Shown here in pieces: positions 15,384-60,993 of a stretch of 64,000 bases of DNA. The notes under the pieces are model-generated. The model was not told where the DNA came from. It did not search any database and saw only the letters and a list, made by a program, of their open reading frames with translations. This DNA comes from an uncultured Bdellovibrionales bacterium (GTDB lineage Bacteria; Bdellovibrionota_C; UBA2361; SZUA-149; CAZDWZ01). Made by a program: the position numbers and the translations under genes. The stretch's first letter is position 1, and every line of letters begins with the position of its first letter. Where the stretch lies: the NCBI GenBank assembly GCA_964405665.1, contig CAYOOT010000006.1, forward strand, positions 3,350 through 67,349, in the 5' to 3' direction.

Positions 15384-17033
15384 ATGCAAAAAGTTTGTGA
15401 ATTAACTCAAGCCCCTTTTACTATTTCGGAATTCGAAGTAGAATTCTGCAGAAAAAATGAAATTCCTCTTCCCACACTCAGTCCTTTTGTCAGACTGCGA
15501 AACTTATTGGTATTTAGAAACAGATCGGATCTTTATCATACAAAATGTGCTTTAAGTGAGAAAAGTATTCTATCTTCTGTTCCGCCGGAGAGTGATTTCA
15601 AAGTCGTTGATATCGATGTTTGGAATTCCGATGCTTGGGATCCTTTAGAGCTGGGCCGGGACTATAATTTTAGTAAACCATTTTTTAAGCAATTCGAAGA
15701 ATTATTAAGAATTACTCCGATTCCCAATCTGGCAGTTATAAAAAGCACTGTGGAAAACAGTGATTATACACATGGAATTCTTGGAGCAAAAAATTGCTAT
15801 TTATTATTTGCTAGCAGTTACAATGAAGATTGTCTTTTTTCCAGAAATATCAATCATTCTAAAAATTTAGTTAACTGTAATTTGGCTCAAAATTCCGAGA
15901 TCTGTTATGACTGTAATAATATTCAAAACGGCTATAATCTAAAATATTGCGCCAATTCTTTTCATTGCTCCGATTCTTACTTTCTTTACAATTGTCAATC
16001 CTGCAGCAATTGTTTTGGTTGCGTTAATTTAAGCAACAAGCAATATCATTACTACAATCAAGCTTTAAAGAAAGAAGAATATCATCAGAAATTGGCGGAT
16101 TTGCAACTGGGAAGTTTCAATTTTATTGAACAGGAAAAGATAAAATTCGATAAATTTAAAGAAAGTTTCCCCATTAAATATTTATTCGGCAAAAGCCTTG
16201 TCGGCTGCAGAGGCAACTTTCTGGCAAACGATAAGAACTGCGATCAATGTTACTTTGTATATGATTCGGAAAATTTAGAATATTGTATCTGGGCAAAGAA
16301 GGCAAAATCATCTCTTTTTCATTGCATGTTCGGATTTAACAGTGAATTGATTTACAATTCTGCCACAGTGGGGGACAGCGCCTATAATATTAAATTTTGC
16401 GCCGATACTTATGAAGGGGTTAATAATTTGGAATATTGTATGTATTGCCAGAGAGGAACCAGCGATTGTTTTGGTTGTGTTGGATTAAAGAAAAATAGTT
16501 ACTGCATTTTAAATAAACAATATTCCAAAGAAGCATACTTTGATTTAGTAAAAAGAATCAAAGAACAGATGAGACAAGCTAAAGAATATGGGCAGTTTTT
16601 TCCGATTTCCTTAAGTCCATTTTATTTTAATCAATCGGAAGCTAATTATTTTCTCCCTTTACCCAAAGCAGAAGTCCTGAAACAAGGTTTTAAGTGGAAA
16701 GAAGATGAAGTAGAAAAGATCGCACAAAAATATCAATTAGCGGATAATATCTCAGAGGTAAGTGATGATATTTTAAATCAAGTTTTGATTTGTTCGGAAT
16801 CAGGGAAAAAATACAAATTAATTAAACCGGAACTTGAATTTTATCGAAAAAATAATGTTCCGATTCCGCGAGTTGCTCCCATGGAAAGATTAAAAGAAAA
16901 AGCGAAAATTCTAAAAATAGAAAAATTACATCCGGGCAATTGTGCAAAATGTCAGCTGGAGTTCGAGACCGCTTATGATCTTAAAACAAACAAAATATAC
17001 TGTGAAGAATGTTTTCAAGAAGAGGTTAGTTGA
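15384..17033 (+). CDS. Cys-rich family protein, copy A (terminal zinc-ribbon modules plus two Cys-rich core modules)
   Basis: 549 aa with more than 40 Cys and no signal peptide or TM helix. Repeated CxxC/CxxCxxC units end in CFGCVNLSNKQYHYYNQ…EEY and CFGCVGLKKNSYCILNKQYSKEAY. C-terminal module: LICSESGKKYKLIKPELEFYRKNNVPIPR…CAKCQ…YCEECF. Paralogous to four other ORFs in this window. Confidence 0.8.
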   Translation: MQKVCELTQAPFTISEFEVEFCRKNEIPLPTLSPFVRLRNLLVFRNRSDLYHTKCALSEKSILSSVPPESDFKVVDIDVWNSDAWDPLELGRDYNFSKPFFKQFEELLRITPIPNLAVIKSTVENSDYTHGILGAKNCYLLFASSYNEDCLFSRNINHSKNLVNCNLAQNSEICYDCNNIQNGYNLKYCANSFHCSDSYFLYNCQSCSNCFGCVNLSNKQYHYYNQALKKEEYHQKLADLQLGSFNFIEQEKIKFDKFKESFPIKYLFGKSLVGCRGNFLANDKNCDQCYFVYDSENLEYCIWAKKAKSSLFHCMFGFNSELIYNSATVGDSAYNIKFCADTYEGVNNLEYCMYCQRGTSDCFGCVGLKKNSYCILNKQYSKEAYFDLVKRIKEQMRQAKEYGQFFPISLSPFYFNQSEANYFLPLPKAEVLKQGFKWKEDEVEKIAQKYQLADNISEVSDDILNQVLICSESGKKYKLIKPELEFYRKNNVPIPRVAPMERLKEKAKILKIEKLHPGNCAKCQLEFETAYDLKTNKIYCEECFQEEVS

Positions 17034-17037
17034 AATT

Positions 17038-18099
17038 ATGAAAAAATATTTATTAATTATCTTATTTTATTTTTTAAGTGCTCTGACCGCAATGGCAGAA
17101 ACGGAAATTAAGATCGGAGTATTGACTGATTTATCAGGTTTGGGAGCATATTACGGAAATCAAACAAGAGTTGGGGCGATGTTAGCCGAGCAGGAAATAA
17201 ACAAGGAAGATAAAAACTTTAAAATAATTTTTGAAGATAGCGGGCTTAAGCCGCCGCAAGCTTTAACAGCAATGCAAAAACTTCTCTATTTTAATAAAGT
17301 GGCAGCCGTTTATGTGGATTTCACTCCAATTGCCACTGCTGTTTCTCCTGTTATCAAGAGCAATAAAAAACTAATGGTTTATTCTGCGGCAGCACGCTCT
17401 GTTGCTTTGGAAAATGAGTATGCCTTTAAAACCTATCTGGATTATCAGCAGGGCTGTGAAACTGTAGCTAAAGAATTAAAAAAAAGAGGTGTTTTGAAAG
17501 TTGGCCTTTTGAAAGCAAATGCTGAATATGCAGAGCTTTGTCTAAACGGCATCAAAAATATTTATCCGGATATTGTGGAATATTCTTATAATAGAGGAGA
17601 TCTTGTTTCATCTCAGGTTTTGGCGATGAAAAATAAGAATATTGAGGTAATATTTAATCCTTCCTATGAGGGGGATTGCGCTAATTCCATTCAAGCGGCA
17701 ACAACAATTAATTATCCGGTAAAATTTGTTTCTGCAGAAGATACTTTTAGTAAAGATCTTGTTGCCAAATACAAAGACCATCTCAATGGTAGCATGTCTT
17801 TTGGACTAAAAAGCTTGCCCCAGGAACTTAAAGATCAAGCAAAGAAACTTCCAGGAGGCGATAAGCTCACAGACTATTACGGTACAGGTTTGGCCATGGC
17901 GCATCTGGAGCAAATGTATCAGACGATTAAAAAATGCGGCAATGAGAATATAACTTGTCAGTTAGAAACCCTAAAAAAAGCGGAAAAGGATAATCGTATC
18001 GGTTTTAAAGGTTGGCAGAACAAAATTGCTGTGCTGAAAACAGAAATTAAAGAATTTAAAAAAGATGCATTTTATCCCATCAATACTCTTGAGAAATAA
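17038..18099 (+). CDS. periplasmic ligand-binding protein, type-1 PBP (Leu/Ile/Val-binding LivK-like), orphan (no cognate permease adjacent)
   Basis: Signal peptide followed by a PBP1 fold pattern (KIGVLTDLSGLGAYYG…). The ATG at 17038 lies 4 nt after the stop of Cys-rich copy A. Confidence 0.75.
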   Translation: MKKYLLIILFYFLSALTAMAETEIKIGVLTDLSGLGAYYGNQTRVGAMLAEQEINKEDKNFKIIFEDSGLKPPQALTAMQKLLYFNKVAAVYVDFTPIATAVSPVIKSNKKLMVYSAAARSVALENEYAFKTYLDYQQGCETVAKELKKRGVLKVGLLKANAEYAELCLNGIKNIYPDIVEYSYNRGDLVSSQVLAMKNKNIEVIFNPSYEGDCANSIQAATTINYPVKFVSAEDTFSKDLVAKYKDHLNGSMSFGLKSLPQELKDQAKKLPGGDKLTDYYGTGLAMAHLEQMYQTIKKCGNENITCQLETLKKAEKDNRIGFKGWQNKIAVLKTEIKEFKKDAFYPINTLEK

Positions 18100-19428: not shown

Positions 19429-20499
19429 TTGACAAACTCCGGCTATTATCCGATAGAACTGGGCATGAATGAACAAGCTGCCAATTCTGTTTGGGGAACT
19501 TCGGAAACCAAATATTTCTACGAATTAACTCCGGAGCGTATTTTAGAGGCAGTGGAAACTTTTACGGGCTTGCGTTGTACCGGACGATGTCTTGCACTGA
19601 ACAGTTTTGAGAACCGAGTCTATGAAGTAGAAATTGATGTCGAAGATGAGAAAAAACTTAAAAGCCCCAGTGAGCGTTTTCGAATTGTAAAATTCTATCG
19701 TCCTGGCAGATGGACTGCCGAGCAAATTCTGGAAGAGCATCGATTTTTACTTGATCTTGTGGAATTAGAAATCCCTGTGGTTGCTCCTTTAATTTTTGGC
19801 AATAATGAGACTCTCTTAAAAATTCCTGAATGTAATATTTGCTGCGCTGTATTTCCCAAAGTTGGTGGTAGAAGCCCTGATGAGCTTAGTGCAGAGCAAT
19901 TACCTTTAGTCGGTAGACTTCTTGCCCGAATGCATAATGCCGGTGCGACTAGAAAAGCAGAACAGCGGATTCGACTTACCGCGGAAAATTACGGCCGAGC
20001 AAGTTTAAAATTTCTTCAAGACTCTAAAACACTGCCCCGAGATATTGCAGGAACTTATAGCGATTTGGTTAATCGTCTTTGTGATCTTATTGAGCCGATG
20101 CTTTTAAATGCTGAAGTGCAGCGTATTCATGGAGATTGTCATTTTGGAAATTTACTGTGGGGAAAAGAAGGTCCATTTTGGGTGGATTTTGATGATATGC
20201 TTAATGGCCCTTGTATTCAGGATCTTTGGTTGATTATTCCGGGACGAGATGATTATGCCAAACAACAGCTTTCAATTCTGTTAGAAGCCTATGAGCAGAT
20301 GAGAAAGTTTGATTATCAAAGTCTGAATTTAATCGAACCGCTACGAGCGCTGCGAATGATTCATTTTAGCGGTTGGATTGCCAAGCGCTGGGAAGATCCG
20401 GCTTTTCCTATTGCTTTTGTTGATTTTGGAACGGAGCGTTATTGGGCGGAGCAGATATCTCAATTGCAAGAGCAGTTGCAGTTGATCGAATTATTGTAG
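19429..20499 (+). CDS. stress-response Ser/Thr kinase SrkA/YihE (RdoA family)
   Basis: Aminoglycoside-phosphotransferase-like fold. N-terminal LNSFENRVYEV and catalytic IHGDCHFGNLLW…VDFDD match the YihE/RdoA family. Confidence 0.75.
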   Translation: MTNSGYYPIELGMNEQAANSVWGTSETKYFYELTPERILEAVETFTGLRCTGRCLALNSFENRVYEVEIDVEDEKKLKSPSERFRIVKFYRPGRWTAEQILEEHRFLLDLVELEIPVVAPLIFGNNETLLKIPECNICCAVFPKVGGRSPDELSAEQLPLVGRLLARMHNAGATRKAEQRIRLTAENYGRASLKFLQDSKTLPRDIAGTYSDLVNRLCDLIEPMLLNAEVQRIHGDCHFGNLLWGKEGPFWVDFDDMLNGPCIQDLWLIIPGRDDYAKQQLSILLEAYEQMRKFDYQSLNLIEPLRALRMIHFSGWIAKRWEDPAFPIAFVDFGTERYWAEQISQLQEQLQLIELL

Positions 20500-20525
20500 G
20501 GGCACCCATAAAGGGTGCCCCTACT
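20495..20525. repeat. GC-rich palindromic hairpin repeat (single unit); the srkA-like stop codon TAG lies in the stem
   Basis: gtaggggcaccc-ataaa-gggtgcccctac. Confidence 0.75.
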
Positions 20526-21792
20526 TCAATCTATCTCTTCCCAAAAACAACTTTGGCAATAAATTATATACGGAGCTTTCTCCGGATAAGTAGAAAGGAT
20601 ACTGGAATTGCATTTTTTACAAGTGCGACGGTAAAGTTGGCGCTCGCTTCTTAGGGCCATGCGCATTATATGGCGACAACTTGGGCAGTGCTCGGGTAAG
20701 GGCAGCTCTTTTCTTTGATAAAAAAGCTGTTCTTGGCCAATAATTGCAAATTTTTTCTTACATTCATTACGAGAACAGTTTCTAATTTCAGAATTAAAAT
20801 CCATTTTTCATCTCCTAAATTATTTCTTGTAATATGGGATCCGTTTCGCTTGTTAAGCGCTGCTTCTCATAGTCAGAAGAAAAAAATATCTCTAAATTGT
20901 AAGAACCGTTTTTGATTAATTCTTGACGTAAATGCCTAACAGAATTTTTATAATCTTCTTCGGAAAGAGCTTGATTGAGCAGATGAAATTTTTTATCGGT
21001 AAGAAAAGTGCAACCAAAGCAAGATTCCAATTTTTTGGAATAAGCGCAGAATTCTGAGTCTCGAGAGAGATCGGTATGTAAAAGAAAATTACAGTTATAA
21101 TTTAATGGAGAATGAACGCAATTATAACAAAGCTCATTTTCAAAACAGACTGTATGGTCACAACAAGTTTTATTGCCGTTTGTTTCAATACAATAAAAAC
21201 ATTCTTCCAAGGCATAACCGTCATAACACTGATAACAATCCTTGGCTTCAGTAAGATTATTTCCAATACAATCTTCGGTGCGAAATTGATGAGTGGCTAA
21301 CACTGGCATTTTTCTTTTTAATTCTTCTAATTTCTGAAGACATTGTTCAGGAGTGATTTTTTTAGAAGCGATTTTATATTCTTCCTTGGAAAGTTGCTGA
21401 TTAAATAAACAAAATTCTTTTCTGAGTAAACCATAACATCCCAGACAATTATTGCAGCTATAGCAATCAATACAGAAATCACATTCGATGCAATTGGAAC
21501 AGTTTTGCGAGCGGGAAGTATCGTAACAATAGGCACAATCAATACAATCCACACAAAACTCACAGCCCACACAAAAAGTTAGATCGCTGCAGGACACACA
21601 TTTTCTGGAATAGCGACTGTAGAGTAAATCTTCAGAATAAAAGGCTCCAAAAGTCCAATAACACTTATTGGATTTCACAGCTGTATCGCTATATTCACAA
21701 TTCTCGACTTGCACTTGCTTTAAATTATAGCGCGGCTTCTCTAAGAGTAACTTTTGAAAAGAGTTGATAAATTCTTCGGCAGAGACAAGCAT
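20526..21792 (-). pseudogene. Cys-rich family copy B: N-terminally truncated body (20815-21792) plus a separately framed C-terminal zinc-ribbon module (20526-20804)
   Basis: The 325-aa ORF aligns with the family core and ends …DPILQEII*. Ten nt downstream, a 92-aa ORF encodes exactly the family C-terminal module (CSRNECKKKFAIIGQEQLFYQRKELPLPEHCPSCR…YCQSCFWEE). A 10-nt gap (not a multiple of 3) implies a frameshift. No N-terminal module is found upstream. Confidence 0.6.
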
Positions 21793-21962
21793 TGTATTTC
21801 CTAGCGATTGATAAAATGTTTGGCGATGATAATGTCGAAATAGCTTATTGTCAATTTCTGTTTTCTATGATAACTTATTGTAATTATTTAATAACTTGGC
21901 TCTCTAAATGTAGAAATTAATTTTACATTTAGAAGAATGTAGAAAGGATATCGACATTTTGT

Positions 21963-22766
21963 ATGGCTCAGAAATCACAGCGAAATCGCCTCCTGGAACA
22001 GCTTTCTCTTTTTGGTTGTTCGCAAAAAGAAGCTGCAATTTATTTACATTGTCTGGAAATGGGAGAATCCTCAGTGCAGGATATTTCTCGTCGTCTGGGG
22101 ATTAATCGAGTTACCGTGCATAGTGCTTGCGAGCAATTATTAAAAAAAGGAATTCTCTCTGAAACAAGACGCGGCAAAGGACGAAGACTTCTGGCGGAGT
22201 CCCCTGCTGTGTTTGGTCGACTGCTGCAGCAACAAGAAAATGAATTAAATGTTAAGCGTTCACAATTAGATGAACTAACGACATTATTACAATCGATGCC
22301 CACTCGTGGCGGGCCGATGCCTACTGTCAGATTTTTAGAGGGTGTTGATGGATTCAAAAGAATGTTGGAAGAAACTTTATCGGCCAAAGGTGAAGTTTTT
22401 GTCTTTACGTATGTCGATCTTTTTTCCAAATTAATTGGTCCTGATTATTTGGAAGATTATTTTAAACGTCGAGCGGCAAAAGGAATTCATACGCGTTTAA
22501 TTTTCCCTCCCTGCCCTTTTGTTAATCGTGTGGCAAAAAAAGCTAAGCAGTATTTAATTAAAGTGCGATTGTTGCCTCCGGAATTTAAATGGCAAGCCGG
22601 TATTTTTTCTTGGAACAATTGTCTTTCTCTTAAATCTTTTACTCAAGGACAGATTACTTGCACGATTGTGGAGAATGAGGACTTAGCTCATTTTTATCAA
22701 AATGTTCTCTTTGAATTAGCTTGGAAACAAGCATCCCTTTTTACAGAATTAGAAAAGGAAGACTAG
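21963..22766 (+). CDS. TrmB-family winged-helix transcriptional regulator
   Basis: N-terminal HTH LFGCSQKEAAIYLHCLEMGESSVQDISRRLGINRVTVHSACEQLLKKG typical of TrmB, with a C-terminal sensor-like domain. Divergent from Cys-rich copy B. Confidence 0.55.
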   Translation: MAQKSQRNRLLEQLSLFGCSQKEAAIYLHCLEMGESSVQDISRRLGINRVTVHSACEQLLKKGILSETRRGKGRRLLAESPAVFGRLLQQQENELNVKRSQLDELTTLLQSMPTRGGPMPTVRFLEGVDGFKRMLEETLSAKGEVFVFTYVDLFSKLIGPDYLEDYFKRRAAKGIHTRLIFPPCPFVNRVAKKAKQYLIKVRLLPPEFKWQAGIFSWNNCLSLKSFTQGQITCTIVENEDLAHFYQNVLFELAWKQASLFTELEKED

Positions 22767-30832: not shown

Positions 30833-31537
30833 ATGACTAAATCAGAAGAAATTTCTCTAGACACAAAAAGCTCTCTACTGAGCACCGCAGAAAAACTATT
30901 TACCAAAAAAGGGTACTCCTCGGTTAGTACCAGAGAGATTGCAGAAGATGCAGGAGTGAATCTTGCGGCGATTCAATATCACTTTGGATCCAAGTCAAAG
31001 CTTTTCATGGAAACAGTAAATCAGATGATGCAGAGCAGTCCCTGTGCCAACTCACTTTCGGAGATCAATTTCACTGCCGAGAACAGAGAAGAAGCTGTTA
31101 AAAAACTAGGAATTGTTATTCGCATTTTTCTTAATTATTTTCTTAAACCTTCGGAAAAGAATGCCTGCCGTTTGGTAATCAGAGAAATTCTTTCAGAAAC
31201 AACGGAAGATCCGGAATTAACAGAAACTCTAGTTACGACATTTACCGAAAAATTTAGTAAACCTTTGGAAGATTCACTTTGCTTGTTACTTTGTAAAATA
31301 AATAAAGACTTTAGTGAAATGCAAACTCGCGAACATGCCAGAAGCATTTTGGGCCAATGTGTTTTTTATGCTTCCCATCATCCATTTTTAAAAAAAATTG
31401 ATCGAAAAGATTTTTCCAAAAGCCCTCATTTAGAAAATACCACAGAACACGTAATTCGCTTTTCTTTAAGAGCCCTGGGATGTGAAGAGAAGTTGATCAA
31501 TAAAACCATAACGGAAACTTTTAAAAATGATCTCTAG
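30833..31537 (+). CDS. TetR/AcrR-family transcriptional regulator
   Basis: N-terminal HTH LLSTAEKLFTKKGYSSVSTREIAEDAGVNLAAIQYHFGSKSKLF. Sits upstream of the efflux genes. Confidence 0.85.
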   Translation: MTKSEEISLDTKSSLLSTAEKLFTKKGYSSVSTREIAEDAGVNLAAIQYHFGSKSKLFMETVNQMMQSSPCANSLSEINFTAENREEAVKKLGIVIRIFLNYFLKPSEKNACRLVIREILSETTEDPELTETLVTTFTEKFSKPLEDSLCLLLCKINKDFSEMQTREHARSILGQCVFYASHHPFLKKIDRKDFSKSPHLENTTEHVIRFSLRALGCEEKLINKTITETFKNDL

Positions 31538-32954: not shown

Positions 32955-32965
32955 AATAAAAAATT

Positions 32966-37981: not shown

Positions 37982-39700
37982 TTAATCACAAGCTGATCCA
38001 AAACAATCCTCGCAATATACAGGCTGACAATGGTTCGGAGAATAGGCAGTAGTGATATTTTCAGCACAGTGATCACATTGTCGCATAAATATTTGTCTAG
38101 TGGTGCGACTATTTTGACGTAGCTGATGGCGACAAAAAAAGCAGCTTGCCGGTAGTGCTAGTCCATTGAGTTTGTGCCATTCTAATTCTAATTGTTGAAG
38201 TCGATATCCACGACTACAAACATCACAACGTAAAGTTGCTTTGATCAAACTTTCCTCTGCTTGTTCTAGGTTATCTGGCAATTCAACTTTATCACTTACC
38301 AGAGTAATGTCCTTGTCATCTTCCCAGGAAAAACCCAGAGAACGTGCTTCTTTAGCTGAAAGCGGATAATGAACCTGTGCTTGCGTAAGATTATACGGAA
38401 AGTCTGAAAGCGATGGGGGAAAGAATTCACCCCATTCACCAGTATGCTTCATGTGATTTATGAGCTTCGGGACTAACAGAAGATAATCACTCTCTGAATA
38501 CTGTTTATTCAGAATACAATACTGATTATGCTTTAGGCTAATGCAACCAAATAAGTGCGCACAATCATATACGCAATCCATGCAGTAGGCTAAGTTATGC
38601 ACTCCAAAACTGCAGGCGAAACAACAGCGAATTTGATATGCCTTAGGCCCGCTATTTGCAGTTTCGATAATTAATTCTCCACCACCGCATTCATCACAAT
38701 CAAGAAATCCTTTCATGCTGGCAAATGCCTGGGCAGCATACATGCCTTCCCATAAATGGTGAGAATCAAAACATTTAATTGCATCCTTACATTCTATTAG
38801 ATAATTACCACTTACATTTTCATTGCGCACGCCTAGTAGATATCGCTCTGGAAATGATTTTCGAAAGACTTCAAATAGTTTACGGTATTTCTGCACACCA
38901 CTCCGATTTTGCAACTCTTGAACTAATTTCTTGTAAACACTGGGTGTGCAAGGTTTATTTTGAAAATAATATTCCTTATTGCGCAAATTGCAGCACAAAA
39001 AACAATTTTTACAACCGATACAGTTTCGAAGAAAATAAGAATCAGAACAATTTTCACATTGAGAAATGAAAGCACTATTGTAGCAACGGATACAATCTAT
39101 TGCTTCGTAACATAACTCCGAATCTTGAACTCGCAAACAGTCCAGAGAAGATTTTGAATTATCTAATCCATATGAGTAAAGACAGTCATGGTCATGATTC
39201 GAGTTAAACACCAGATAACAATTCTTTAACGCTCCTGTAAAATTAGTATAGGCAGAATTTTCAGAGTTGATATAATCTGTGTGCAGTGCAACATGCGGAA
39301 CAACATTTTTAAGTTCTTTTAATTGCTCAAAAAATGGCCTGGAAAAATCAATCTTCCGACCATACTCTCGCCCGTCAAATTTATCGCTATGCCAATATTC
39401 TGAATTAAAAACAGGATGTCGTACCTCATTTGAAAAATGACTAATGATTGACTTTCCAGTGGCATCACAATTACGTTTTACTAAATGTAATTGATTAAGA
39501 TGAAGAAGCCGTCTCTGAGAACGGCAGCGAGGACATTTTTTTGGATCAGGCATGCCAGATTTCTCGCGAAATTCATGTTCCCAATGTGTTATTGCAAATA
39601 CTTGAGAACAGTCACTGCAATTTTGTTGAGATATTATGTGACCAATCAAACCTGAACTATTATTATTTGCATCTATGACCATGAATATATAATATATCAA
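37982..39700 (-). CDS. Cys-rich family protein, copy C
   Basis: 572 aa. N-module CSDCSQVFAITHWEHEFREKSGMPDPKKCPRCR…LHLVKRNCDATGKSIISHF, Cys-rich cores ending CFLCCNLRNKEYYFQNK and …CISLKHNQYCILNKQYSESDY, C-module RCDVCSRGYRLQQLELEWHKLNGLALP…YCEDCF. Confidence 0.8.
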   Translation of the reverse strand: MIYYIFMVIDANNNSSGLIGHIISQQNCSDCSQVFAITHWEHEFREKSGMPDPKKCPRCRSQRRLLHLNQLHLVKRNCDATGKSIISHFSNEVRHPVFNSEYWHSDKFDGREYGRKIDFSRPFFEQLKELKNVVPHVALHTDYINSENSAYTNFTGALKNCYLVFNSNHDHDCLYSYGLDNSKSSLDCLRVQDSELCYEAIDCIRCYNSAFISQCENCSDSYFLRNCIGCKNCFLCCNLRNKEYYFQNKPCTPSVYKKLVQELQNRSGVQKYRKLFEVFRKSFPERYLLGVRNENVSGNYLIECKDAIKCFDSHHLWEGMYAAQAFASMKGFLDCDECGGGELIIETANSGPKAYQIRCCFACSFGVHNLAYCMDCVYDCAHLFGCISLKHNQYCILNKQYSESDYLLLVPKLINHMKHTGEWGEFFPPSLSDFPYNLTQAQVHYPLSAKEARSLGFSWEDDKDITLVSDKVELPDNLEQAEESLIKATLRCDVCSRGYRLQQLELEWHKLNGLALPASCFFCRHQLRQNSRTTRQIFMRQCDHCAENITTAYSPNHCQPVYCEDCFGSACD

Positions 39701-40453: not shown

Positions 40454-40470
40454 TATTATCCATAATAAAT

Positions 40471-46956: not shown

Positions 46957-46976
46957 TTAAAAACAATGGAAATTTC

Positions 46977-48407
46977 TTACTTTTTTGAAGGAAGCAACTT
47001 CAGTATTGTCTGGGCAAGGGTTTCGTAATCTCCATCAAAATGATGAGATCCCCCCAGCTCTTTTACTATTATATCGCTATTCTTTAGTTTACTGCAAAGC
47101 GAATCTTCCTCTTCGTCGCTGCCATAAAGGCAAATAATCGATTGCCGATTTAATTTACTTATTTCCGGTAAAATTTCCTGTTCATCTTCTGGGGTCTCGA
47201 TATCCAGCCAGTCCGTAAAATGTATTTCAAACTCTGCCGTCAAACCGGGATTAAGTAAGATAGTGCTTAGAACCTTACTTTTAATTTTATTTTCCATTTT
47301 ATTTAAAGCAAAGGGTAAAACTTCAGCTCCCAAAGAATAGCCAATTAATAAGACTTTTTCCGATCCCCATTTCTTTTGGTAATTTAAGATTATATTTTCT
47401 AAATCCTGGGCTAAGGTTTCCGCATTTTTTTCTTTCCAAAAATATTTTAAGGCATCAAAACCGACGACATTGATTTGGTTTTCTTGGAAATAATCTCCAA
47501 GAGCTTTATCAATTGTTGCCCAACCACCATCTCCGGAGAGTAAGATAATAAAATAATCTTTAATAGCGTTTTCACTGGGAAGTTCGATTAAAGGAAGCTC
47601 AGAGATTTTTTCTGTCTGAATAACAGGACTTTGAGGTTTCTGTTCTTCACTTAATTTTATAAATTTATCAAAAAGCTCACAAGAATGTTCAGTACAAGAA
47701 AAAACTTCCCGCTTTGCTTGATAATTTTCAGCTAAAGCCTGAGGAAAACCTAGAGCAGACTTATTCTGGCAAGTATTTTTAAGCGCTAAATTAAAATACC
47801 AAGGAATATTAATCGATTTAGTCATTTCCAGATTAATGCTTTTTCTCTTTTTAGTTAAACTTGATTTGGGTTCAGAATCGGGGCAAAGTTTTTTTGTAAA
47901 AGGCAATTCTGGGCAGAAATTATAGGAAACACCTCCGAGAAAGCTTTTTGAAGATTGGGCAAGAATAGTATAGACCAGTGCACTTCCTACTCCATCACCG
48001 ATTAATAAAGGTTTGCTAACCTCATCTAATTTTGCCATTTTTTGAATGACTTGGCTTAAGCGCTCAAATTCACCGGCAAGATAAATACAGTCTTCATTAT
48101 CTTTATTAAGTTCTTTTAAATAAGAGGCCACATCAATTTTAACTAAAAGGATAGATTTTTTTTGAAGTTCAGAAATTTCCAAAGGAATGTTTTCTGAGAC
48201 ATTATTCCCTGCAAGGTAAAATACTACCAGCCTGGGCTGTTCTTTTGTTTTGAAATAACTGATTTTACCAAAGCGTGTAGTTGCTAAGACTTCTTGGGAA
48301 AAACAATCTTGTACAAAGAGGGAAAGCAAAAGAAAAGTTAAAAAAATGAATTTATTAATTAGAGTTAGTGCTCTAGAATTTATTATGACAGACATTCTTG
48401 AAAACAT
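46977..48407 (-). CDS. AcvB/VirJ-like secreted alpha/beta-hydrolase (aminoacyl-PG hydrolase partner of MprF/LpiA)
   Basis: Signal peptide and a C-terminal VirJ-type hydrolase region (…YFIILLSGDGGWATIDK…LLIGYSLGAEVLPF…). Placement immediately upstream of the mprF-like gene mirrors lpiA-acvB operons. Confidence 0.65.
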   Translation of the reverse strand: MFSRMSVIINSRALTLINKFIFLTFLLLSLFVQDCFSQEVLATTRFGKISYFKTKEQPRLVVFYLAGNNVSENIPLEISELQKKSILLVKIDVASYLKELNKDNEDCIYLAGEFERLSQVIQKMAKLDEVSKPLLIGDGVGSALVYTILAQSSKSFLGGVSYNFCPELPFTKKLCPDSEPKSSLTKKRKSINLEMTKSINIPWYFNLALKNTCQNKSALGFPQALAENYQAKREVFSCTEHSCELFDKFIKLSEEQKPQSPVIQTEKISELPLIELPSENAIKDYFIILLSGDGGWATIDKALGDYFQENQINVVGFDALKYFWKEKNAETLAQDLENIILNYQKKWGSEKVLLIGYSLGAEVLPFALNKMENKIKSKVLSTILLNPGLTAEFEIHFTDWLDIETPEDEQEILPEISKLNRQSIICLYGSDEEEDSLCSKLKNSDIIVKELGGSHHFDGDYETLAQTILKLLPSKK

Positions 48408-49981
48408 TTTTCGCAGTAAATTATCTTATTCGAATTTCCTTTAAAGCTGGATTCCAAAGGTGTAGCGCATTTAGAGCAGAAAGTCTTTAGCAGTTTTCTG
48501 GGATTTCTCAGACCCAAGCGCTTAGTATGGCGAATATCGTGATGAAGGTGCGGTAGCGGTAAATTTGATTTCTTTAAAAAATCCAACTCCGATTTTTGGA
48601 TTTTAAAGGACCGACCGGAAGCTTCACAATGAAGTACTTTCGTTAAAATCCCCGGATCGACCTCGCTAATAGTTTCAGGTAAGTTTTGTGTTGCCGAAGA
48701 AGTATTTTCTTTAAAATCTTTCCAGAGCAGTCCAGCGGATAAAGCTTCTTCTTTGGTGAGCGGGAAATATTCCTGGGCCACGGATTCATTATAAGCAAAC
48801 GGAGAGTTTTTAATAGGGAAATATTGCCCCCATTCTTTTGTTTCTTTCATCTGCAAAATAATTTTTTCTCTTAATTTTACAAAATCTTCTTGGGAGTATT
48901 CTTTATTAAGAATACTAAATTTCCCCTGTCTTAAGCCGACACAGCCGAATAAATCGGAAGAATTAAAACAATGCGAGCTATACCAGGTATTATGTGTTTC
49001 GCTGATCTTGGAAGAAAAACCGGAATTTGTATTTTTGTAGCAACCTTCAATTTCAATGCAAAAATCTTGCTCCAAAGTTTCCGTTAAATCCAGAGAATTT
49101 CTTCCGCCCCAGGCATCGCGGCAATGAAAGATGTTTTCGGAGTTCCGGCAATTAAAACTGTTAAAAGCATTTTTATTATTTTCTAAATAATCTCCCGAAA
49201 AATTTTCATTATTGGCGCCATTATAAAATTTAAAAGGATGAGTTAAGGAAAATTCTTCGAATTTCTTTTTAAAAGCTGTTATTTTGGAATATTTTTCCAG
49301 TTCCAAGGAATTTAAGACCTTAAAATATTCTTCTTTGGTGTATTGTTTATTGAAAATACAATAAGTTTTATTGTTTAAATTGACACAAGCTGTGCAATAA
49401 GAGCAACCTATTAAGTTTCTGGAAAAATTACAATTAGTGCAATTGACGAGATTCTCTGAAAAACTGCAAAAGTAGCAATTTTTTCCATTTAAAATTTCAT
49501 AACAAAGCTCTCCCTTTTCCAAATAAGTGCAATCCAGACATTCAGTGCAGGTTTGATACCACATGCCATACATACATTCTCTGGAATTATTACTACAGAA
49601 AACCAGATAGCAATCTTTATTTTTTTCGCACTGATTGGTGTATTCACAGTTTTCGCTTTGCGGACATCTGAGGGCACATTGAGGTACTACTGAGAATAGA
49701 TCTATAAATTGTTCAAAAAATGTTTTATTAAAATCATATGTTCTTCCGTATTTCAGGGCATTCCAATTGTCCGACCACCAATATTGTTGAGAATAAACAG
49801 GGAAACTTGTTCCTGTATCAAAAATTGAAATAATATTTTCTTTTGTAGCATCGCAAGTTCTTTTATAAAGAGTTCTTTCATTTCGCCAGGCCAATCTTTT
49901 TCTGGATCTTTCTTCACTGCTTATTGAAGGAATAGGAATATCTAATTTTAAATATAGTTCTTTTTCCAGATTATTATCCAT
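48383..49981 (-). CDS. Cys-rich family protein, copy D (3' end overlaps the acvB-like start by 25 nt)
   Basis: 532 aa. N-module KELYLKLDIPIPSISSEERSRKRLAWRNERTLYKRTCDATKENIISIF, cores ending …CVNLNNKTYCIFNKQYTKEEY and …CVGLRQGKFSILNKEYSQEDF, C-module LHCEASGRSFKIQKSELDFLKKSNLPLPHLHHDIRHTKRLGLRNPRKL…YCEKCF. Confidence 0.8.
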   Translation of the reverse strand: MDNNLEKELYLKLDIPIPSISSEERSRKRLAWRNERTLYKRTCDATKENIISIFDTGTSFPVYSQQYWWSDNWNALKYGRTYDFNKTFFEQFIDLFSVVPQCALRCPQSENCEYTNQCEKNKDCYLVFCSNNSRECMYGMWYQTCTECLDCTYLEKGELCYEILNGKNCYFCSFSENLVNCTNCNFSRNLIGCSYCTACVNLNNKTYCIFNKQYTKEEYFKVLNSLELEKYSKITAFKKKFEEFSLTHPFKFYNGANNENFSGDYLENNKNAFNSFNCRNSENIFHCRDAWGGRNSLDLTETLEQDFCIEIEGCYKNTNSGFSSKISETHNTWYSSHCFNSSDLFGCVGLRQGKFSILNKEYSQEDFVKLREKIILQMKETKEWGQYFPIKNSPFAYNESVAQEYFPLTKEEALSAGLLWKDFKENTSSATQNLPETISEVDPGILTKVLHCEASGRSFKIQKSELDFLKKSNLPLPHLHHDIRHTKRLGLRNPRKLLKTFCSKCATPLESSFKGNSNKIIYCEKCFQECLS

Positions 49982-51771: not shown

Positions 51772-53085
51772 CTATTGTCTTTTCTCCCCCACTAAATATG
51801 CAACTAATGGCAGATTTTGTTTGTTAATAATTAAGCTATGCTCGCAGCTAGTTAGTAGTTGCAACTGATTTTTTGTTGGTAAATTATTACTCTTTAGTTC
51901 AAAGGCAGTTCCCTCAAAATAGAAGTCAATTTCTGCTTTTGTTGTATCTGAGTATAAATAACTTGGTCGATTAACTTCTTCATGCCTTAAAAACTGAGTT
52001 GAAAAAGCAGATTCATGGAGATTTAAATTCCAATCAATTTGTTCTAAGTAATTTCTCCGAATATTATTTCCTATAGCTTGCAAAACCCTGCTGATATAGG
52101 GATCAATTGCATATATTTTTTTAAGTTTTACAGGTAAAAATTTGCCTTTTTGAGGATCAAAGCGGCCAATAGTTCTAATCGAAAAATGATCCTCCTGGAT
52201 TTCAAGTAAGGAACGAATAGTATTAGCACTTAAAATATCAGTATTCTTTTTAAGGGCTTCGAATGAAACTCTGGAATTGATAGTTTCGATCAATCTTTTA
52301 CAAACCGCCCTTAAGCTTTGCTCTTGGGTTCTAATTGTACTCCAAGCACCCAGGATCCAATCCTCATAAACTCTAAATGTTTCATCGGATATTATTTGTT
52401 TAAACATTTTTTCTGCTAAAACTTTAGGAAAGCCGCCATGCAGTAGATAATCTTGCCAGGAATTTGTTAACTCATGCTTACAGGCATTGAGCCAATTCTG
52501 AGTTATGTCCCTAAAGGATAGATTATTGAAGTTCAAGGCTAGTTCAGGATAAAACATGTCAATATATTCTCTAAAGCTCCAAGGTCTTGCAAAAATAACT
52601 TTCCCCTCTCCTTTTCTTCCGGGAAGTCTTTCCCCTGACTCTAATATGTGGCGTGCTTCGCTGCCTGTGCACCAGAGCCTTACATTTTTAAGCTTTCCCT
52701 CTTGATAGAGAGACCTTAATGCCAGATGCCAGCCTTCAACTGATTGTACTTCATCTAAAACAATGGACGTTTTTCCTTTTATATCTTTGCTTAACTGTTC
52801 AGCTAAATCTTTCTTATTGATAATCGTAGAGCAATCTAAAAATGAAATTGTTTCTGAATCGTTTAGTTGGCTAAGCCAGAGCTTTAGGGAAGATGTTTTA
52901 CCAATCTGTCTTGGCCCATAAAGTAAAGAAATCGAGCCAAAAGCCGTATTAAAAATCTTTAATGGTATTGCAGATTTCTCAAAAAGACCTTTCTCTCCCC
53001 ATATTTTTTTAGAACTTTCAATAGCGGGATCTTCGGTTAATATACTGAAATTATTTGATAAATTTGAATTTATAATTATCCGCAT
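51772..53085 (-). CDS. AAA+ ATPase of the AAA_14/DUF4143 (COG1373) type
   Basis: P-loop LLYGPRQIGKTS, Walker B VLDEVQ, and a C-terminal DUF4143-like region; 437 aa. Confidence 0.7.
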   Translation of the reverse strand: MRIIINSNLSNNFSILTEDPAIESSKKIWGEKGLFEKSAIPLKIFNTAFGSISLLYGPRQIGKTSSLKLWLSQLNDSETISFLDCSTIINKKDLAEQLSKDIKGKTSIVLDEVQSVEGWHLALRSLYQEGKLKNVRLWCTGSEARHILESGERLPGRKGEGKVIFARPWSFREYIDMFYPELALNFNNLSFRDITQNWLNACKHELTNSWQDYLLHGGFPKVLAEKMFKQIISDETFRVYEDWILGAWSTIRTQEQSLRAVCKRLIETINSRVSFEALKKNTDILSANTIRSLLEIQEDHFSIRTIGRFDPQKGKFLPVKLKKIYAIDPYISRVLQAIGNNIRRNYLEQIDWNLNLHESAFSTQFLRHEEVNRPSYLYSDTTKAEIDFYFEGTAFELKSNNLPTKNQLQLLTSCEHSLIINKQNLPLVAYLVGEKRQ

Positions 53086-53159: not shown

Positions 53160-53650
53160 TTACTCATTTCGTATTTTCATTCTTTTCGCATAGCGGGCAT
53201 CAGGACAGCAGCGTGGAATCGGTAAATTCATTTTTTTATAAAATTCAAATTCTTGAAGGATTATTTTATAATTTTTAGCGCTAATTTCACAACTTAAGAT
53301 TTCTTTGCAAATATCTGCAGAAGCTTCTTGGAGATCGTCAGGTAAAACGAAAGTCTGTTCCCGATAATCTTTTTTGTTTTCCTCTTGCCAGCGGTAACCA
53401 CTAGCAAGAGCGTTTTCTTTTTCTAAAGGGAATTTTTCATGGGCCACACTTTCATTATAGGCAAAGGGAGAGAGTTGTTTTGGAAAAAACTTCCCCCATT
53501 CCTTTGTTTTTTGCATTTGCTGGATAATTAAAGCTTTTAATTTAGCATACTCATTCGGCGAATATTCTTTATTTTAAAATGAGTCCTGCAGCCTTAGCTA
53601 AAAAATTAAAAGCCCCCGGCACCACAATGCAAAATATTTTACTGCGCTTA
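53160..53650 (-). pseudogene. decayed remnant of a Cys-rich family gene (3' region only, stops upstream, truncated C-terminal module)
   Basis: ORF 53160-53516 encodes …KEWGKFFPKQLSPFAYNESVAHEKFPLEKENALASGYRWQEE…CEISAKNYKIILQEFEFYKKMNLPIPR, the family C-terminal region, ending before the final CxxC. The in-frame upstream translation KYFALWCRGLLIF*LRLQDSF*NKEYSPNEYAKLKALIIQQ still resembles the family (…CFGCVGL…ILNKEYS…) but carries stop codons. Confidence 0.55.
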
Positions 53651-53990
53651 GAGAGAAAGGGTTTTGCCACAGTCAATGAAAGTAACAAAACACTAACTTA
53701 TAATGCCCTGCATTTGCCAGGAAAGTATATGAAAGTGGCAAATATTCTCCCAAATCCCATAAAGGATATAAGTGGATTCCGGAAAGTTTATATCCCTTTG
53801 TTATTGAAATGAATATCTATGATGGCAAAGTTTCCTATTTAACTTATGTGAGAAATGAAATTATCGGAGTGATTATCGAAAACGATTATATTTATCAAAT
53901 GCATAACTCGATGTGGAATTTGGTTTGGGATCTTTTGCCGGGGCCGGGATTAATTCGAGGCAAAAGTAATAAACAAAAGAAATAATATTT

Positions 53991-58171: not shown

Positions 58172-59317
58172 ATGTTCAAAAAAATTTTCTTTCTTTTAAT
58201 TTTCTCTATTAGTTCTTGTAAAAATAATACAGAAACAAAAAATAATCCCAATGATAGCGCCAATCAGCAAAAAATCAAAATTGGTTGGATTGGAGCGCTT
58301 ACTGGTCCGGTAACAAAATTCGGGTCTTACCAGGCGGCACAAATTGCACTTGAGGATATTAATGCCAGTGGAGGAATTAATGGAAAACCGCTGGAACTTA
58401 TTTTTGAAGACGGACAATGTAACGGCAAATTTGCTGTCAGTGCTGCTAAGAAATTAATCGAATTAGATAAGGTCAATTTGATTTTGGGCGGACATTGCAC
58501 TCCGGAATCCCTGGCCATTGCTCCCATTGTGGAAACTAAAAAAGTAGTGATGCTAGCCGCTTCTACTACTACACCAAAATTAAGCAATGCCGGAGATTAT
58601 GTTTTTAGATTAAGTCCAGTTAATACTTCCGGAACAAAGTTGATAATTGATTACTTAAAAAATACATTTAAGCCAAAGAAAATAGCGATATTTTATGAGC
58701 TAACCGATTATGCCGCTCCTCCGGCAGAATTATTAAAATCAGAAATAGAAAAAAATCCTTCGATGGAACTTGTATTTTTTGAAAGCTTTAATACTGGCGA
58801 AACGGATTTTAGAACTTTAATATCTAGATTAAAAAGTAAAGAAGCTGATGCCATTTACGTTGGCACTCAATCCCAAGATTCTGCCTCCTTGGTAGTTAAG
58901 CAAATTAAAGAGCAAAATATTTCCACACAACTTTTTGGCAATGAAGTTTTTGGTGGAGTAGTTGTCTCTCATCCTGAGCAAAAGGCAGATTTTGAAAATT
59001 CTATTTATGCCGAGCCTTTTTTTGATCCAACAACTGCCTTGACCAGCCCTTTTGTTGATAAATATGAAAAGAAATTTGGAACAAGAGCATTACCTTTTGG
59101 AATTTGGACAGCGGAAGCTTATGATACTGTAATGTTGCTTGCTAAATTAGTAAAAGAATGTGGAGAAAGTGCTGAGGCGATAAAAACTTGCCTCTATCAA
59201 GTTAAAGACTATGCCGGTGCTTCAGGAATAGTTTCTATTGATAGCAATGGCGACGGAGTGAGAAAATACTACATTAATAAAATTGTCGACGGTAAACCGC
59301 AAAGAATTGGAGGCTAA
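58172..59317 (+). CDS. lipoprotein, type-1 periplasmic binding protein (branched-chain amino-acid-binding LivK-like)
   Basis: Lipobox LLIFSISSC and a PBP1 pattern (KIGWIGALTGPVTKFG…). 3' end overlaps convergent Cys-rich copy E by 4 nt. Confidence 0.75.
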   Translation: MFKKIFFLLIFSISSCKNNTETKNNPNDSANQQKIKIGWIGALTGPVTKFGSYQAAQIALEDINASGGINGKPLELIFEDGQCNGKFAVSAAKKLIELDKVNLILGGHCTPESLAIAPIVETKKVVMLAASTTTPKLSNAGDYVFRLSPVNTSGTKLIIDYLKNTFKPKKIAIFYELTDYAAPPAELLKSEIEKNPSMELVFFESFNTGETDFRTLISRLKSKEADAIYVGTQSQDSASLVVKQIKEQNISTQLFGNEVFGGVVVSHPEQKADFENSIYAEPFFDPTTALTSPFVDKYEKKFGTRALPFGIWTAEAYDTVMLLAKLVKECGESAEAIKTCLYQVKDYAGASGIVSIDSNGDGVRKYYINKIVDGKPQRIGG

Positions 59318-60993
59318 TTAATCTTAGAGTGATAGCAAGTTTCACACAAAATCCTACTATCATAATCTTTTGGCCAACTGGTTTTAGTGCTCTTTAAACA
59401 TTGCTGACATTTGCTTTCTCGCAGCTCTCCGGAAAAAGGAATCCATTGATAATTATCTTGGAGACGATGAGTATAATAGGAAGACGGTAAGGGCACGCCG
59501 ATTTTATTGGAAAAAATTATATCAGCTTTGCTGATTTTAAATGGACGTTGATATTCTTCATCCCAAAAAACTGTATTTGTTAGCGAATGCTGCGGATCAT
59601 TTAATGCCGCTTGGATTAAATCGGAACTTAGTTGATCGATAATTTCCCGAGAAGAGCAATAATTTGTTTGCTGACGCTCTAATTTTGCTGCTGTTCTAAA
59701 CCCTAATTTACTTTGTTCTTCTTCTGATAATTTAAAACGAAATCCGGATAAACTTTCATTATAGGGATTGGGTGCAAAATGCCCGGGAAAGAAGGTCCCC
59801 CACTCTCCTGTTTCTTTCATTTGTTCAATAATCTGATCTTTTAAAATTCGATATTCTTTTTCGGAATAAGCTTTATTGAAAATATGAAATTTTTTCTGAA
59901 ATAAACCACAACAAGCAAAACAATTTTCGCACTGAAAACAATAAGCCGAGTAATCGCAAAAACGACAGGAATTAAGTTCAAAACTGAAGCTGGTTTGATA
60001 ACAAAAAACATTCATTACGGAATAATAAGTTAGCTCCGTGCCGATTGTTCCCATTGCATCTAATGTAAATTTGGCATTGGGACCGGAGACGGCATCGTTG
60101 ACGCAATTCTCATGATAGGAAAGCTCAAAACAGTTTTCGCAATTCTTGCAATGTTCCAAATAGTTTCCACTGCTATCTTCAGACTTGTCTATAAAAACAG
60201 CCTTGTGATAAGCCGTTTTTAACATCATCTCGGCAAAAAAACTTTTAGCTTTTTGATAAACTGTATTCGATAATAAGTTCCAGTTTTTCTTAGTTTCTTG
60301 AAATTCACTTTCCGTCATCTGCTTGTTGCCGAAACAAAAGCGTTTGTTTCTTAAATTAAAACAAAACATGCAATCGCGACAATTTCTACAATCATAAAGA
60401 AAAGTGGAATCCTGAACATTGCGGCAATGAATGCCATAAATTAAATTATAGCAGTCTTGAGAACAGACCAAATCAAAACAAAGCTCAGAATTGATTCCAA
60501 ATACACAATAGTGACAATCTCTTAATTTGGTACAGTAAATACAGTAATGACAATCTTCGGAATATTCTCCGGAATGACAGAGATAACAATTTTTGCTGTG
60601 ATAAAAATCATCAGTATATTCACAGTTCTGGTTACTCTTTTGAAAAATATGAGGCAAAGGACAGCGCTGAAACAGCTCCCAGGCTTGTTCAAAAAAAGAA
60701 CGGGAAAAAATATAGTTCGTATTTGGCGGATTAGCATTGGCAATCCATTGGTCTTTATGCCAGATCGGGTAAGGACAATCGGGACGAAAAATAGAAACAA
60801 TATTTTGTTTTGTTAAATCACAAGTTCGGGAATACAAATTCCAATGGGGCCAGAATGCTCCCAACTCGCGAAAGCGATATTGTGGTTTGATTTTAGGCCA
60901 GCTCTCAGAAAAACCAAACTTACTTCTTAATTGTTTTTCTAACTCAGAAAGAACAAAGTTTTCTCCTGAGATTTGACAGAGAAGACTACTCAT
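59314..60993 (-). CDS. Cys-rich family protein, copy E (18 nt downstream of bshA, same strand)
   Basis: 559 aa. N-module LLCQISGENFVLSELEKQLRSKFGF…LYSRTCDLTKQNIVSIF, cores ending CFNLRNKRFCFGNKQMTESEF and CCGLFQKKFHIFNKAYSEKEY, C-module …KIGVPLPSSYY…CQQC…LCETCY. Confidence 0.8.
   Translation of the reverse strand: MSSLLCQISGENFVLSELEKQLRSKFGFSESWPKIKPQYRFRELGAFWPHWNLYSRTCDLTKQNIVSIFRPDCPYPIWHKDQWIANANPPNTNYIFSRSFFEQAWELFQRCPLPHIFQKSNQNCEYTDDFYHSKNCYLCHSGEYSEDCHYCIYCTKLRDCHYCVFGINSELCFDLVCSQDCYNLIYGIHCRNVQDSTFLYDCRNCRDCMFCFNLRNKRFCFGNKQMTESEFQETKKNWNLLSNTVYQKAKSFFAEMMLKTAYHKAVFIDKSEDSSGNYLEHCKNCENCFELSYHENCVNDAVSGPNAKFTLDAMGTIGTELTYYSVMNVFCYQTSFSFELNSCRFCDYSAYCFQCENCFACCGLFQKKFHIFNKAYSEKEYRILKDQIIEQMKETGEWGTFFPGHFAPNPYNESLSGFRFKLSEEEQSKLGFRTAAKLERQQTNYCSSREIIDQLSSDLIQAALNDPQHSLTNTVFWDEEYQRPFKISKADIIFSNKIGVPLPSSYYTHRLQDNYQWIPFSGELRESKCQQCLKSTKTSWPKDYDSRILCETCYHSKIN

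Follow-up and report, generated by a model that had tools for sequence, protein, structure and literature searches.

A stretch of 64,000 nucleotides (below, the window) from contig CAYOOT010000006.1 of an uncultured Bdellovibrionales bacterium carries several genes for large cysteine-rich proteins. Four of them (copies A–D) encode a long form of about 550 residues, a fifth locus consists of a shorter core gene (E), a small separate zinc-finger gene (Ez) and a divergent gene for a TrmB-like regulator, and a sixth is a pseudogene fragment (remnant F; Table 1). A preliminary description of this DNA had listed four intact reading frames, whose boundaries were reproduced exactly, and had considered them paralogous. 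The long copies can indeed be aligned end to end with 28–41% identity (34% between A and C), and copy C used as a tblastn query recovered every family locus of the window and nothing else (E=1e-89 to 1e-25, with 1e-89 to 8e-58 for the other long copies). More than 40 cysteines had been credited to each copy, which is true of only one of them, as seen from the counts in Table 1. The remnant, placed earlier at 53160–53650 (-), proved to be real. Its homology to residues 329–492 of copy C extends over 53166–53678 (-) (tblastn, E=7e-33), two in-frame stops lie upstream of a 118-aa open reading frame (ORF), the first ~330 residues and the final zinc finger are missing, and the nearest proteins are of the C type (52–56%).

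Table 1. Positions of the features considered. Numbers are nucleotides of the window unless residues of the copy C model or loci of other genomes (L numbers) are indicated.
Feature	Position	Strand	Remarks
Copy A	15384..17033	+	549 aa, 30 Cys; directly after recF; ORF call and translation
Copy B	37982..39700	-	572 aa counted from TTG, 41 Cys; likely start is ATG at 39682
Copy C	48383..49981	-	532 aa, 32 Cys; structural reference
Copy D	59314..60993	-	559 aa, 38 Cys; divergent subfamily
E, short-form core gene	20815..21792	-	325 aa, 34 Cys (10.5%); two solenoids, no zinc module
Ez	20526..20804	-	92 aa, eight Cys, two zinc fingers; stand-alone
Remnant F	53160..53678	-	pseudogene fragment, family residues ~329–492, two in-frame stops
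TrmB-like winged-helix regulator	21963..22766	+	267 aa, divergent from E; Pfam TrmB match
Predicted operator O1	21938..21956		TGTAGAAAGGATATCGACA (TGTAGA-N7-TCGACA); 7 nt upstream of regulator start codon
Predicted operator O2	21909..21927		TGTAGAAATTAATTTTACA (TGTAGA-N7-TTTACA)
Promoter-like site for E/Ez	21826..21854	-	TTGACA-17-TATCAT; 11/12 consensus matches; consensus match only
Zinc module (N-terminal)	residues 1–62		copy C model
Linker	residues 63–104		copy C model; highly conserved, WWSD.WD ... DF..PFF.QF
Solenoid 1	residues 105–212		copy C model; nine 12-residue coils, pLDDT ~72
Helical hairpin	residues 213–254		copy C model
Solenoid 2	residues 255–362		copy C model; pLDDT >90
Helix and conserved linker	residues 363–445		copy C model; EWG.FFP ... 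SPF.YNE
Zinc module (C-terminal)	residues 446–532		copy C model
Array-linked ATPase	L001 7627–9882		
Array-linked ATPase	L056 7187–9427		
Array-linked ATPase	L008 9593–11833		
Array-linked ATPase	L079 17485–end		

Modular plan of the proteins and position of their cysteines

Conservation, motifs and duplications were studied on an alignment of 288 family members, and profile–profile comparisons were made with hhalign. The long form is built in the order zinc module, linker, solenoid 1, helical hairpin, solenoid 2, helix with linker and again zinc module. The N- and C-terminal zinc modules matched each other with a probability of 99.8% (E=2.6e-28, 63 columns), in agreement with the internal duplication noticed earlier, and the two solenoids with a probability of 99.9% (E=1e-33, 122 columns); for a control pair of unrelated regions it was 0.6%. 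The FF(E/K)QFxEL linker and the KEWG(K/Q)(F/Y)FP … SPFAYNES block of the preliminary description were found to be family-wide features, since FF.QF..L, EWG.FFP...SPF.YNE and CFGC..L..K.Y.ILNK.Y(S/T).EEY are all 85–100% conserved. Its two core modules also remained as a duplicated pair ending in the CFGC block, but the repeat inside them is 12 residues long rather than 7–8. Both solenoids are capped at the end, and the cap holds an invariant Asn (N211, N359).

The AlphaFold2 (AF2) model of copy C obtained with a 67-sequence alignment is confident (predicted local distance difference test, pLDDT, 88.4; predicted template-modelling score, pTM, 0.88), and backbone bridges assigned in it by DSSP are spaced every 12 residues. 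Cysteines obey the same period. In module 1 they are confined to positions 2, 5, 8 and 11 of the 12-residue coil, their frequency at the other positions being 0.00–0.03 nearly throughout, with one position at 0.20; in module 2 they occupy positions 3, 6, 9 and 12. The inward positions of the solenoid, i.e. every third residue, are Cys or Ser. The density of cysteines climbs toward the end of solenoid 1, where the last coil has the form CxxCxxCxxC in 75–97% of members. Most core Cys positions are conserved to 35–85%, with Ser, Thr, Gly or Asn in the remaining sequences; as far as alignments can tell, this pattern fits a packing ladder better than a set of obligatory ligands. Variable Cys positions co-occur mainly at i, i+12 (phi about 0.4, a modest value uncorrected for phylogeny) and not at i, i+6, which leaves cross-coil disulfides unsupported. 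It is conceivable, although improbable, that Cys4 metal sites are stacked into a column within the core; to our knowledge, such a column is present in no solved protein. Total Cys content is 4.7–9.1%, and 10.5% in E, and each copy in the window has 8–17 CxxC motifs.

At the ends of the protein conservation is much stricter. The motif C502-x2-C505-x17-C523-x2-C526 (numbering of copy C) is Cys in 98–100% of members and is the only universally complete four-Cys site. Zinc at this place is plausible by analogy with small CxxC-x17-CxxC proteins of Methanosarcina mazei, for which zinc binding was registered by inductively coupled plasma mass spectrometry (PMC12704099). Copy B has both N-terminal zinc knuckles intact, and copy C lacks the first one. 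Each end also bears an invariant Arg stripe (R25/R29/R33/N34 and R484/R488/R492/N493, that is R-x3-R-x3-R-N) on a predicted helix. Both ends are basic, with charges of +2.9 and +6.0, as opposed to the acidic solenoids and linkers (-3 to -6.9), and ends together with linkers are more conserved than solenoid surfaces and central helices. Hydrophobic segments are absent from the copies in the window, and in 166 of 169 relatives from other genomes the maximal 19-residue Kyte–Doolittle score is below 1.6. Hydropathy detected neither transmembrane (TM) nor signal-peptide-like segments in the window copies, as the preliminary description had stated for the copies it listed.

The same description could not place the proteins in a named family, and this position has not changed: the core is covered neither by a model of Pfam, NCBIfam or PADLOC nor by a solved structure, PADLOC gave no family for any of the six proteins at E<=1, and the only outcome of the PDB sequence search was that the last finger looks LIM-like (E=0.008). 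Structure prediction, which it had recommended, gave a confident fold, but one that matches only generic solenoids. The closest known structures of this type are narrow beta-solenoids, those of curli CsgA, of ryegrass and spruce-budworm ice-binding proteins and of an insect antifreeze protein. The antifreeze beta-helix of Tenebrio molitor has a 12-residue coil with the repeat TCTxSxxCxxAx. Coil length and a small inward residue at every third position, as judged by AF2/DSSP and by the placement of cysteines, are common to this helix and our proteins, which differ from it in the absence of i, i+6 Cys pairing (co-occurring pairs are i, i+12) and of a signal peptide.

Known families come closest to the end modules. 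At E<=0.1, zf_Tbcl_2 was matched by 43 and zf_Tbcl by 12 of 67 family members. For the proteins of the window these matches are below cut-off: zf_Tbcl_2 (PF23477, cut-off 27) gave 22.4 bits with copy B (residues 535–568) and 20.0 with copy C, TIGR04272 (cut-off 36) 20.4 and 18.7, respectively, with A and D unmatched by either model, and zf_Tbcl (PF13451, cut-off 24), compared with the first finger of the terminal module, 21.1 with copy B (residues 27–64) and 19.4 with Ez. The C-terminal site has exactly the CxxC-x17-CxxC spacing of these probable treble-clef families. Unlike in these families, the finger here is part of an ~85-aa module with an LPxP motif and the Arg-stripe helix. A 550-aa protein carries this module at its beginning and at its end, the N-terminal copy having lost most zinc ligands. 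There is a weak link, through a module of the Cys-solenoid type, to phrog_15341, a hypothetical protein of Campylobacter phages (CP220, NC_027997.1 24347–24595; CPt10; CP20). Its matches to the window copies range from E=1.7e-9 (with E) to 6.5e-4, tblastn against the phages gave about 5e-6, and it is the only viral relative found; it differs in size (~276 aa), and the match covers 26–35% of the query.

Metallothioneins have fewer than 100 aa, at least 15–30% Cys and no regular secondary structure. This identity is excluded for proteins of 325–572 aa with 5.5–10.5% Cys and a confident repetitive fold. Cysteine-rich extracellular proteins were reported in Peribacteria (PMC4736985). They have 580–3,860 aa and mostly pappalysin- or integrin-like annotation, so that they are not the proteins described here. 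A survey of protein families in the candidate phyla radiation (CPR; bioRxiv 10.1101/335083) contains no description of a Cys-ladder family, and in the literature searched we found neither the family and its coil nor the operator and the array/ATPase organisation considered below.

Relatives in other genomes, arrays and the divergent regulator

A word-indexed search with copy C gave more than 5,661 relatives, none of them with a name beyond "hypothetical". When 1.84 billion cluster representatives were searched exhaustively with HMMER, 6,046 clusters (50% identity) were obtained at E<=1e-3, of which 2,509 also passed E<=1e-30, and nearly all matches listed are 530–600 aa long. Counting across genomes had been suggested in the preliminary description; with one genome per species, there are at least 586 matching stretches, almost all in Patescibacteria (Peribacteria, Peregrinibacteria, Gracilibacteria, Nomura-, Staskawicz- and Abawacabacteria) and two in Bdellovibrionota. 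It is very probable that the genes belong to a large family centred in Patescibacteria and annotated as "hypothetical", and that the window comes from a member of Bdellovibrionota. The plasmid collection contained no family match and viral contigs only one partial match, which rules out the idea of mobile-element cargo.

In Patescibacteria the long form is organised in head-to-tail arrays: 211 family ORFs were found in 78 loci, up to eight of them per 13.6 kb, with nine genes in L079 and seven or eight in L049, L060 and L065. The genes are closely spaced, start and stop codons sometimes overlap, and we infer that they are co-transcribed. In one contig a TrmB-like gene precedes six family genes, and a second one precedes three more, which are followed by an ATPase gene. 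Mean identity within an array is 41%, as compared with 55% for the best match in another genome, so the genes of an array are not recent duplicates; some orders of subfamilies recur.

The same can be said of the copies in the window. The closest relative of copy A (46%) is L065_11259, a gene of an Abawacabacteria array, and those of copy B (42–43%) lie in Peribacteria arrays. Copy D is 28–30% identical to A–C and 42–49% to array genes of a separate group (L003, L002, L075, L047, L057), which come from Peribacteria and unclassified metagenome-assembled genomes (MAGs). Copy C is 88% identical to protein P0001 and 57% to an Oligoflexia protein. In the comparison with the closest CPR array genes identity was 43–49%, against 28–35% among siblings in the window. 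Since the closest relatives are CPR array genes rather than these siblings, a recent lineage-specific burst is ruled out, and the paralogues of the window belong to several subfamilies of ancient origin.

At no fewer than nine loci the last family gene is immediately followed, on its own strand, by a gene for an ATPase of ~750 aa. It follows the array directly, with a gap of 16–112 bp, in L001, L008, L023, L034, L056, L065 and L079; in L039 and L062 it is near the array and in L078 directly before it. The ATPases match T4SS-DNA_transf, DUF87, TrwB_AAD_bind and TraG-D_C of Pfam and have DUF8128 at the N-terminus. No hydrophobic or TM segment was found in array-linked ATPases, which weakens the idea of a membrane coupling protein beside the arrays and lets us classify them, by prediction, as soluble enzymes of the HerA/FtsK class. 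A survey of Patescibacteria registered 5,713 VirD4-like genes, only 148 of them near virB4, and considered the rest perhaps exapted (PMC12102498). These orphan proteins share T4SS-DNA_transf, DUF87 and TraG-D_C with the array versions and occur by thousands away from virB4; the array versions differ in having DUF8128 at the N-terminus and no TM segment, and the survey names no link to a Cys-rich family (PMC12102498). Array-linked ATPases may thus explain some orphan type IV coupling protein genes of Patescibacteria. There is no such ATPase gene within the window.

The commonest neighbour of family genes in the 78 loci is a TrmB-like regulator, nearly always on the strand opposite to them and separated by a spacer of roughly 85–600 bp. 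The regulator of the window is 47–59% identical to those of short-form cassettes (see below) and 25–30% to those of long-form arrays. It matches PF01978, the N-terminal winged helix of TrmB, with 32.0 bits (cut-off 25.6). Beyond residue ~80 Pfam gave no match; neither the TrmB sugar-binding domain nor any other Pfam family was found in the C-terminal ~150 aa. Similarity to P. furiosus TrmB (3qph) is weak (E=0.07), comprises the winged helix-turn-helix and the dimerisation helix and ends at residue 161. Thus the winged helix scoring above threshold, divergent transcription and a palindromic operator are shared with the TrmB family. Differences from it are the unmatched C-terminal part and the operator TGTAGA-N6/7-TCTACA with its targets, which were not found in the literature searched.

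The palindrome adjoining the regulator start is TGTAGA-N6-TCTACA in long-form arrays and TGTAGA-N7-TCTACA in short-form cassettes, and palindromes of the O1 type occupy the equivalent place in L082, L083 and L084. Allowing one mismatch, the operator was found in 15 of 21 spacers between regulator and family genes. Of 27 sites in a total of 1.01 Mb, 17 fall into scored spacers with a combined length of 3.9 kb, which gives a density of 4.4 per kb versus 0.0099 per kb elsewhere, a 440-fold difference. The other ten, too, are mostly adjacent to a regulator or a short distance upstream of a family gene. No further N7-spaced operator was found near any family gene in the window. In some regulator/array spacers (L011 10130–10237, L079 12155–12241) TGTAGA-N6-TCTACA is replaced by TGTCTA-N6-TAGACA, suggesting that paralogous regulators have diverged in operator specificity. 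The position of the predicted operator directly indicates autoregulation of the TrmB-like regulator, and its control over E/Ez can be supposed from their conserved pairing.

The pair E/Ez had been taken for a fifth copy, N-truncated and split. Instead, it turned out to be two intact genes of a conserved short-form cassette with a TrmB-like regulator. Full-length relatives of E (324–339 aa, 50–61% identity) were found in Gracilibacteria, Peregrinibacteria and Peribacteraceae; in a minority of relatives (401–429 aa) the extra ~90 residues are homologous to Ez and keep all eight of its cysteines. Ez starts 10 nt past the stop of E, has its own AGGAG Shine–Dalgarno sequence, is modelled by AF2 with a pLDDT of 89 and is 53–64% identical to 91–92-aa genes of the same position in L082 and L084. 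The three-gene arrangement recurs in L082 (Peregrinibacteria), L084/L085, which represent one cytochrome-rich non-CPR contig recovered in two assemblies, and L083, which has a fusion of core and zinc protein. The layout consists of the TrmB-like gene, always adjacent and divergent, a spacer of ~170 bp, the core gene on the opposite strand and, 12–20 bp further, the 91–92-aa gene. The cassette is kept at 47–64% identity in four other contigs, and the genes around it are otherwise unrelated between contigs. Because regulator, core and zinc gene are conserved as a unit, E/Ez is very probably a functional split version of the conserved architecture. Between the stop of Ez and a convergent gene for an APH-family kinase there is a perfect hairpin with a 12-bp stem (~20490–20522, GTAGGGGCACCC-TTTAT-GGGTGCCCCTAC), likely a bidirectional terminator, though it has no T-run.

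Possible role of the family

In the explanation that we consider best, to which as a whole we give somewhat less than an even chance, the proteins would be soluble and intracellular, with end modules fixed by zinc. Solenoids lined with Cys and Ser would form a rigid acidic rod, and the Arg-striped ends would act as a pair of hands gripping either a polyanion, for which nucleic acid is the likeliest candidate, or partner proteins of acidic character. A TrmB-like regulator, presumed to sense a ligand and to regulate itself, would set the level of expression, and in CPR the paralogues would be co-transcribed, often with a soluble ATPase of the VirD4/HerA type, a class of nucleic-acid motors. An adaptor for nucleic acids is favoured because of the charge layout, the conservation, the intracellular type of fingers, and the DNA-binding regulators and motor-type ATPase nearby. 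The molecular role as such, a bivalent zinc-stabilised adaptor or spacer that grips a polyanion and is not an enzyme, is offered tentatively and, taken separately, is rather unlikely. Several observations weigh against the explanation as a whole. A Cys content of 7% is unusual for a cytoplasmic scaffold, and conserved polar residues of the linkers (D71, D83, Q91, N111, D150, D298, N211, N359, E383, N398) could mark a catalytic or ligand site. The whole protein resembles nothing more specific than generic solenoids, copies A–D have no regulator, operator or ATPase nearby in the window, and the operator lies beside the start of the regulator itself, so that only the conserved pairing speaks for control of E/Ez.

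The ATPase can also be viewed as the principal partner, with family proteins as its cargo or adaptors and their end modules as handles for ATP-driven translocation or remodelling. The position of its gene beside the arrays, the set of Pfam domains, the abundance of VirD4-like genes far from virB4, the conserved ends flanking a variable middle, and the prevalence of the family in CPR and Bdellovibrionota, both living on other bacteria, speak for this possibility. It is nevertheless improbable: the array ATPases have no TM segments, unlike canonical coupling proteins, the gene is absent from the window, and the short-form cassette is single-copy with no ATPase nearby. Moreover, the paralogues are ancient, keep 55% identity to orthologues in other genomes and do not evolve as fast as typical effectors, and stably folded zinc fingers are poor substrates for translocation. 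Slightly less credit is due to a high-capacity buffer of metals or thiols inside the cell (for zinc, copper, cadmium, oxidants or electrophiles), in which stacked CxxC pairs would bind or be sacrificed. The abundance of Cys and CxxC, the CxxCxxCxxC coil at the end of solenoid 1 and co-occurrence at i, i+12, as expected for such pairs, would suit it. But this co-occurrence is modest and not corrected for phylogeny, most core cysteines are exchanged for Ser, Thr, Gly or Asn, the regulator is of the TrmB type and not ArsR/SmtB, MerR or CsoR, and an elaborate multidomain plan with ancient subfamilies is unexpected for a bulk buffer.

Rods braced by disulfides and exported by a non-classical route for surface or cell–cell contacts, similar to the insect antifreeze beta-helix, would explain the Tenebrio-like coil with small inward residues and would be in line with the known presence of Cys-rich extracellular proteins in Peribacteria. 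Those proteins are different and much larger, however, signal peptides and TM segments were not detected, Cys covariation has the period i, i+12 and not i, i+6, and CxxC-x17-CxxC fingers with Arg-rich helices are typical of intracellular proteins, all of which makes export very unlikely. The weakest of the rivals is a polyferredoxin-like electron carrier with Fe-S clusters, suggested as one option by the preliminary description. Numerous CxxC and CxxCxxC motifs are in its favour, and the host lineages are largely anaerobic. Yet the ferredoxin motif CxxCxxCxxxCP is present in none of the 288 members, on which ground we reject this hypothesis, leaving it only a minimal chance. CxxCxxCxxxC was found in 11 of the 288, no Fer4-type Pfam match was obtained for 67 members at E<=0.1, and AF2 puts the cysteines into a narrow 12-residue coil rather than a cluster-binding loop.

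A bolder extension of the adaptor explanation, improbable at present, is that the family, TrmB-like regulators with their operator, and the soluble ATPase with DUF8128 and VirD4/HerA-like domains constitute an unrecognised multi-paralogue machine of bacteria dwelling on other bacteria, such as CPR epibionts and Bdellovibrionota predators. It could be a nucleic-acid-handling or conflict system, in which ancient rod-shaped zinc-finger adaptors would be loaded or remodelled by the ATPase.

Taken singly, the parts of the proposed system are familiar: the zinc fingers are of the treble-clef type, the core is a narrow beta-solenoid, and the regulator belongs to the TrmB type. No database model or publication was found for their combination, for a cytoplasmic-type 12-residue coil with Cys at every third residue, for the operator or for the array/ATPase organisation. 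For a protein that seems to be cytoplasmic, such a regular placement of Cys is structurally interesting by itself. Some of the ultra-small CPR bacteria, with genomes of ~1 Mb, spend at least 15 kb on one array, a large investment in an unnamed protein. The confident AF2 model permits a domain definition to be written now, and the conserved regulator with its predicted operator offers an immediate experimental handle. Members from Bdellovibrionota, a diderm phylum with cultured relatives, may be more tractable than CPR co-cultures.

Host and neighbouring genes

GyrB of the window is 77% identical to a protein of a Bdellovibrionota MAG and 69–74% to Bdellovibrionales/Oligoflexia proteins, and region 30833–37206 (+) contains a TetR regulator with a complete operon of resistance–nodulation–division (RND) efflux (OEP, HlyD-type adaptor, AcrB). 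GyrB identities, together with RND efflux that includes an outer-membrane factor, place the host among the diderms of Bdellovibrionota. Genes in the window follow the order dnaA-dnaN-recF ... gyrB-gyrA, with dnaA and dnaN within 10757–12950 and a 440-bp gap between them. DnaA boxes of the E. coli type with at most one mismatch are no commoner in the whole window than expected by chance (17 versus 16.8) and form no cluster, so oriC was not located. The preliminary description had considered the occurrence of paralogues near the replication origin unusual. Proximity to dnaA/gyrB does not characterise the family, whose members in other genomes occur elsewhere, in unrelated contexts, and an origin-linked role is unsupported.

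Among the neighbours of copy B is a gene for a DNA-binding protein of the ORF6N/KilA-N type (37213–37713, -), 268 bp downstream. In the Peribacteria MAG loci L061, L078 and L060, homologues with 42–44% identity are situated within the family arrays; the gene may encode a second regulator or be mobile and hitch-hike with the family. Directly upstream of copy B, 39722–40480 (-) encodes a 252-aa protein with the tRNA_SAD (AlaX-like editing) motif, followed by a double AsnC/HTH_24 regulator (40496–41539). Solute-binding genes of the Peripla_BP_6 family abut copy A (16942–18099, +) and copy D (58172–59317, +), the latter being convergent with copy D and overlapping its stop end; this adjacency is possibly a coincidence. 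Between remnant F and copy C there are an AAA_14/DUF4143 ATPase (51772–53085, -) and an NTP_transf_5 nucleotidyltransferase (50056–51165, -), gene types often found in variable or defence islands, and homologues of MprF and VirJ are encoded at 44356–48407.

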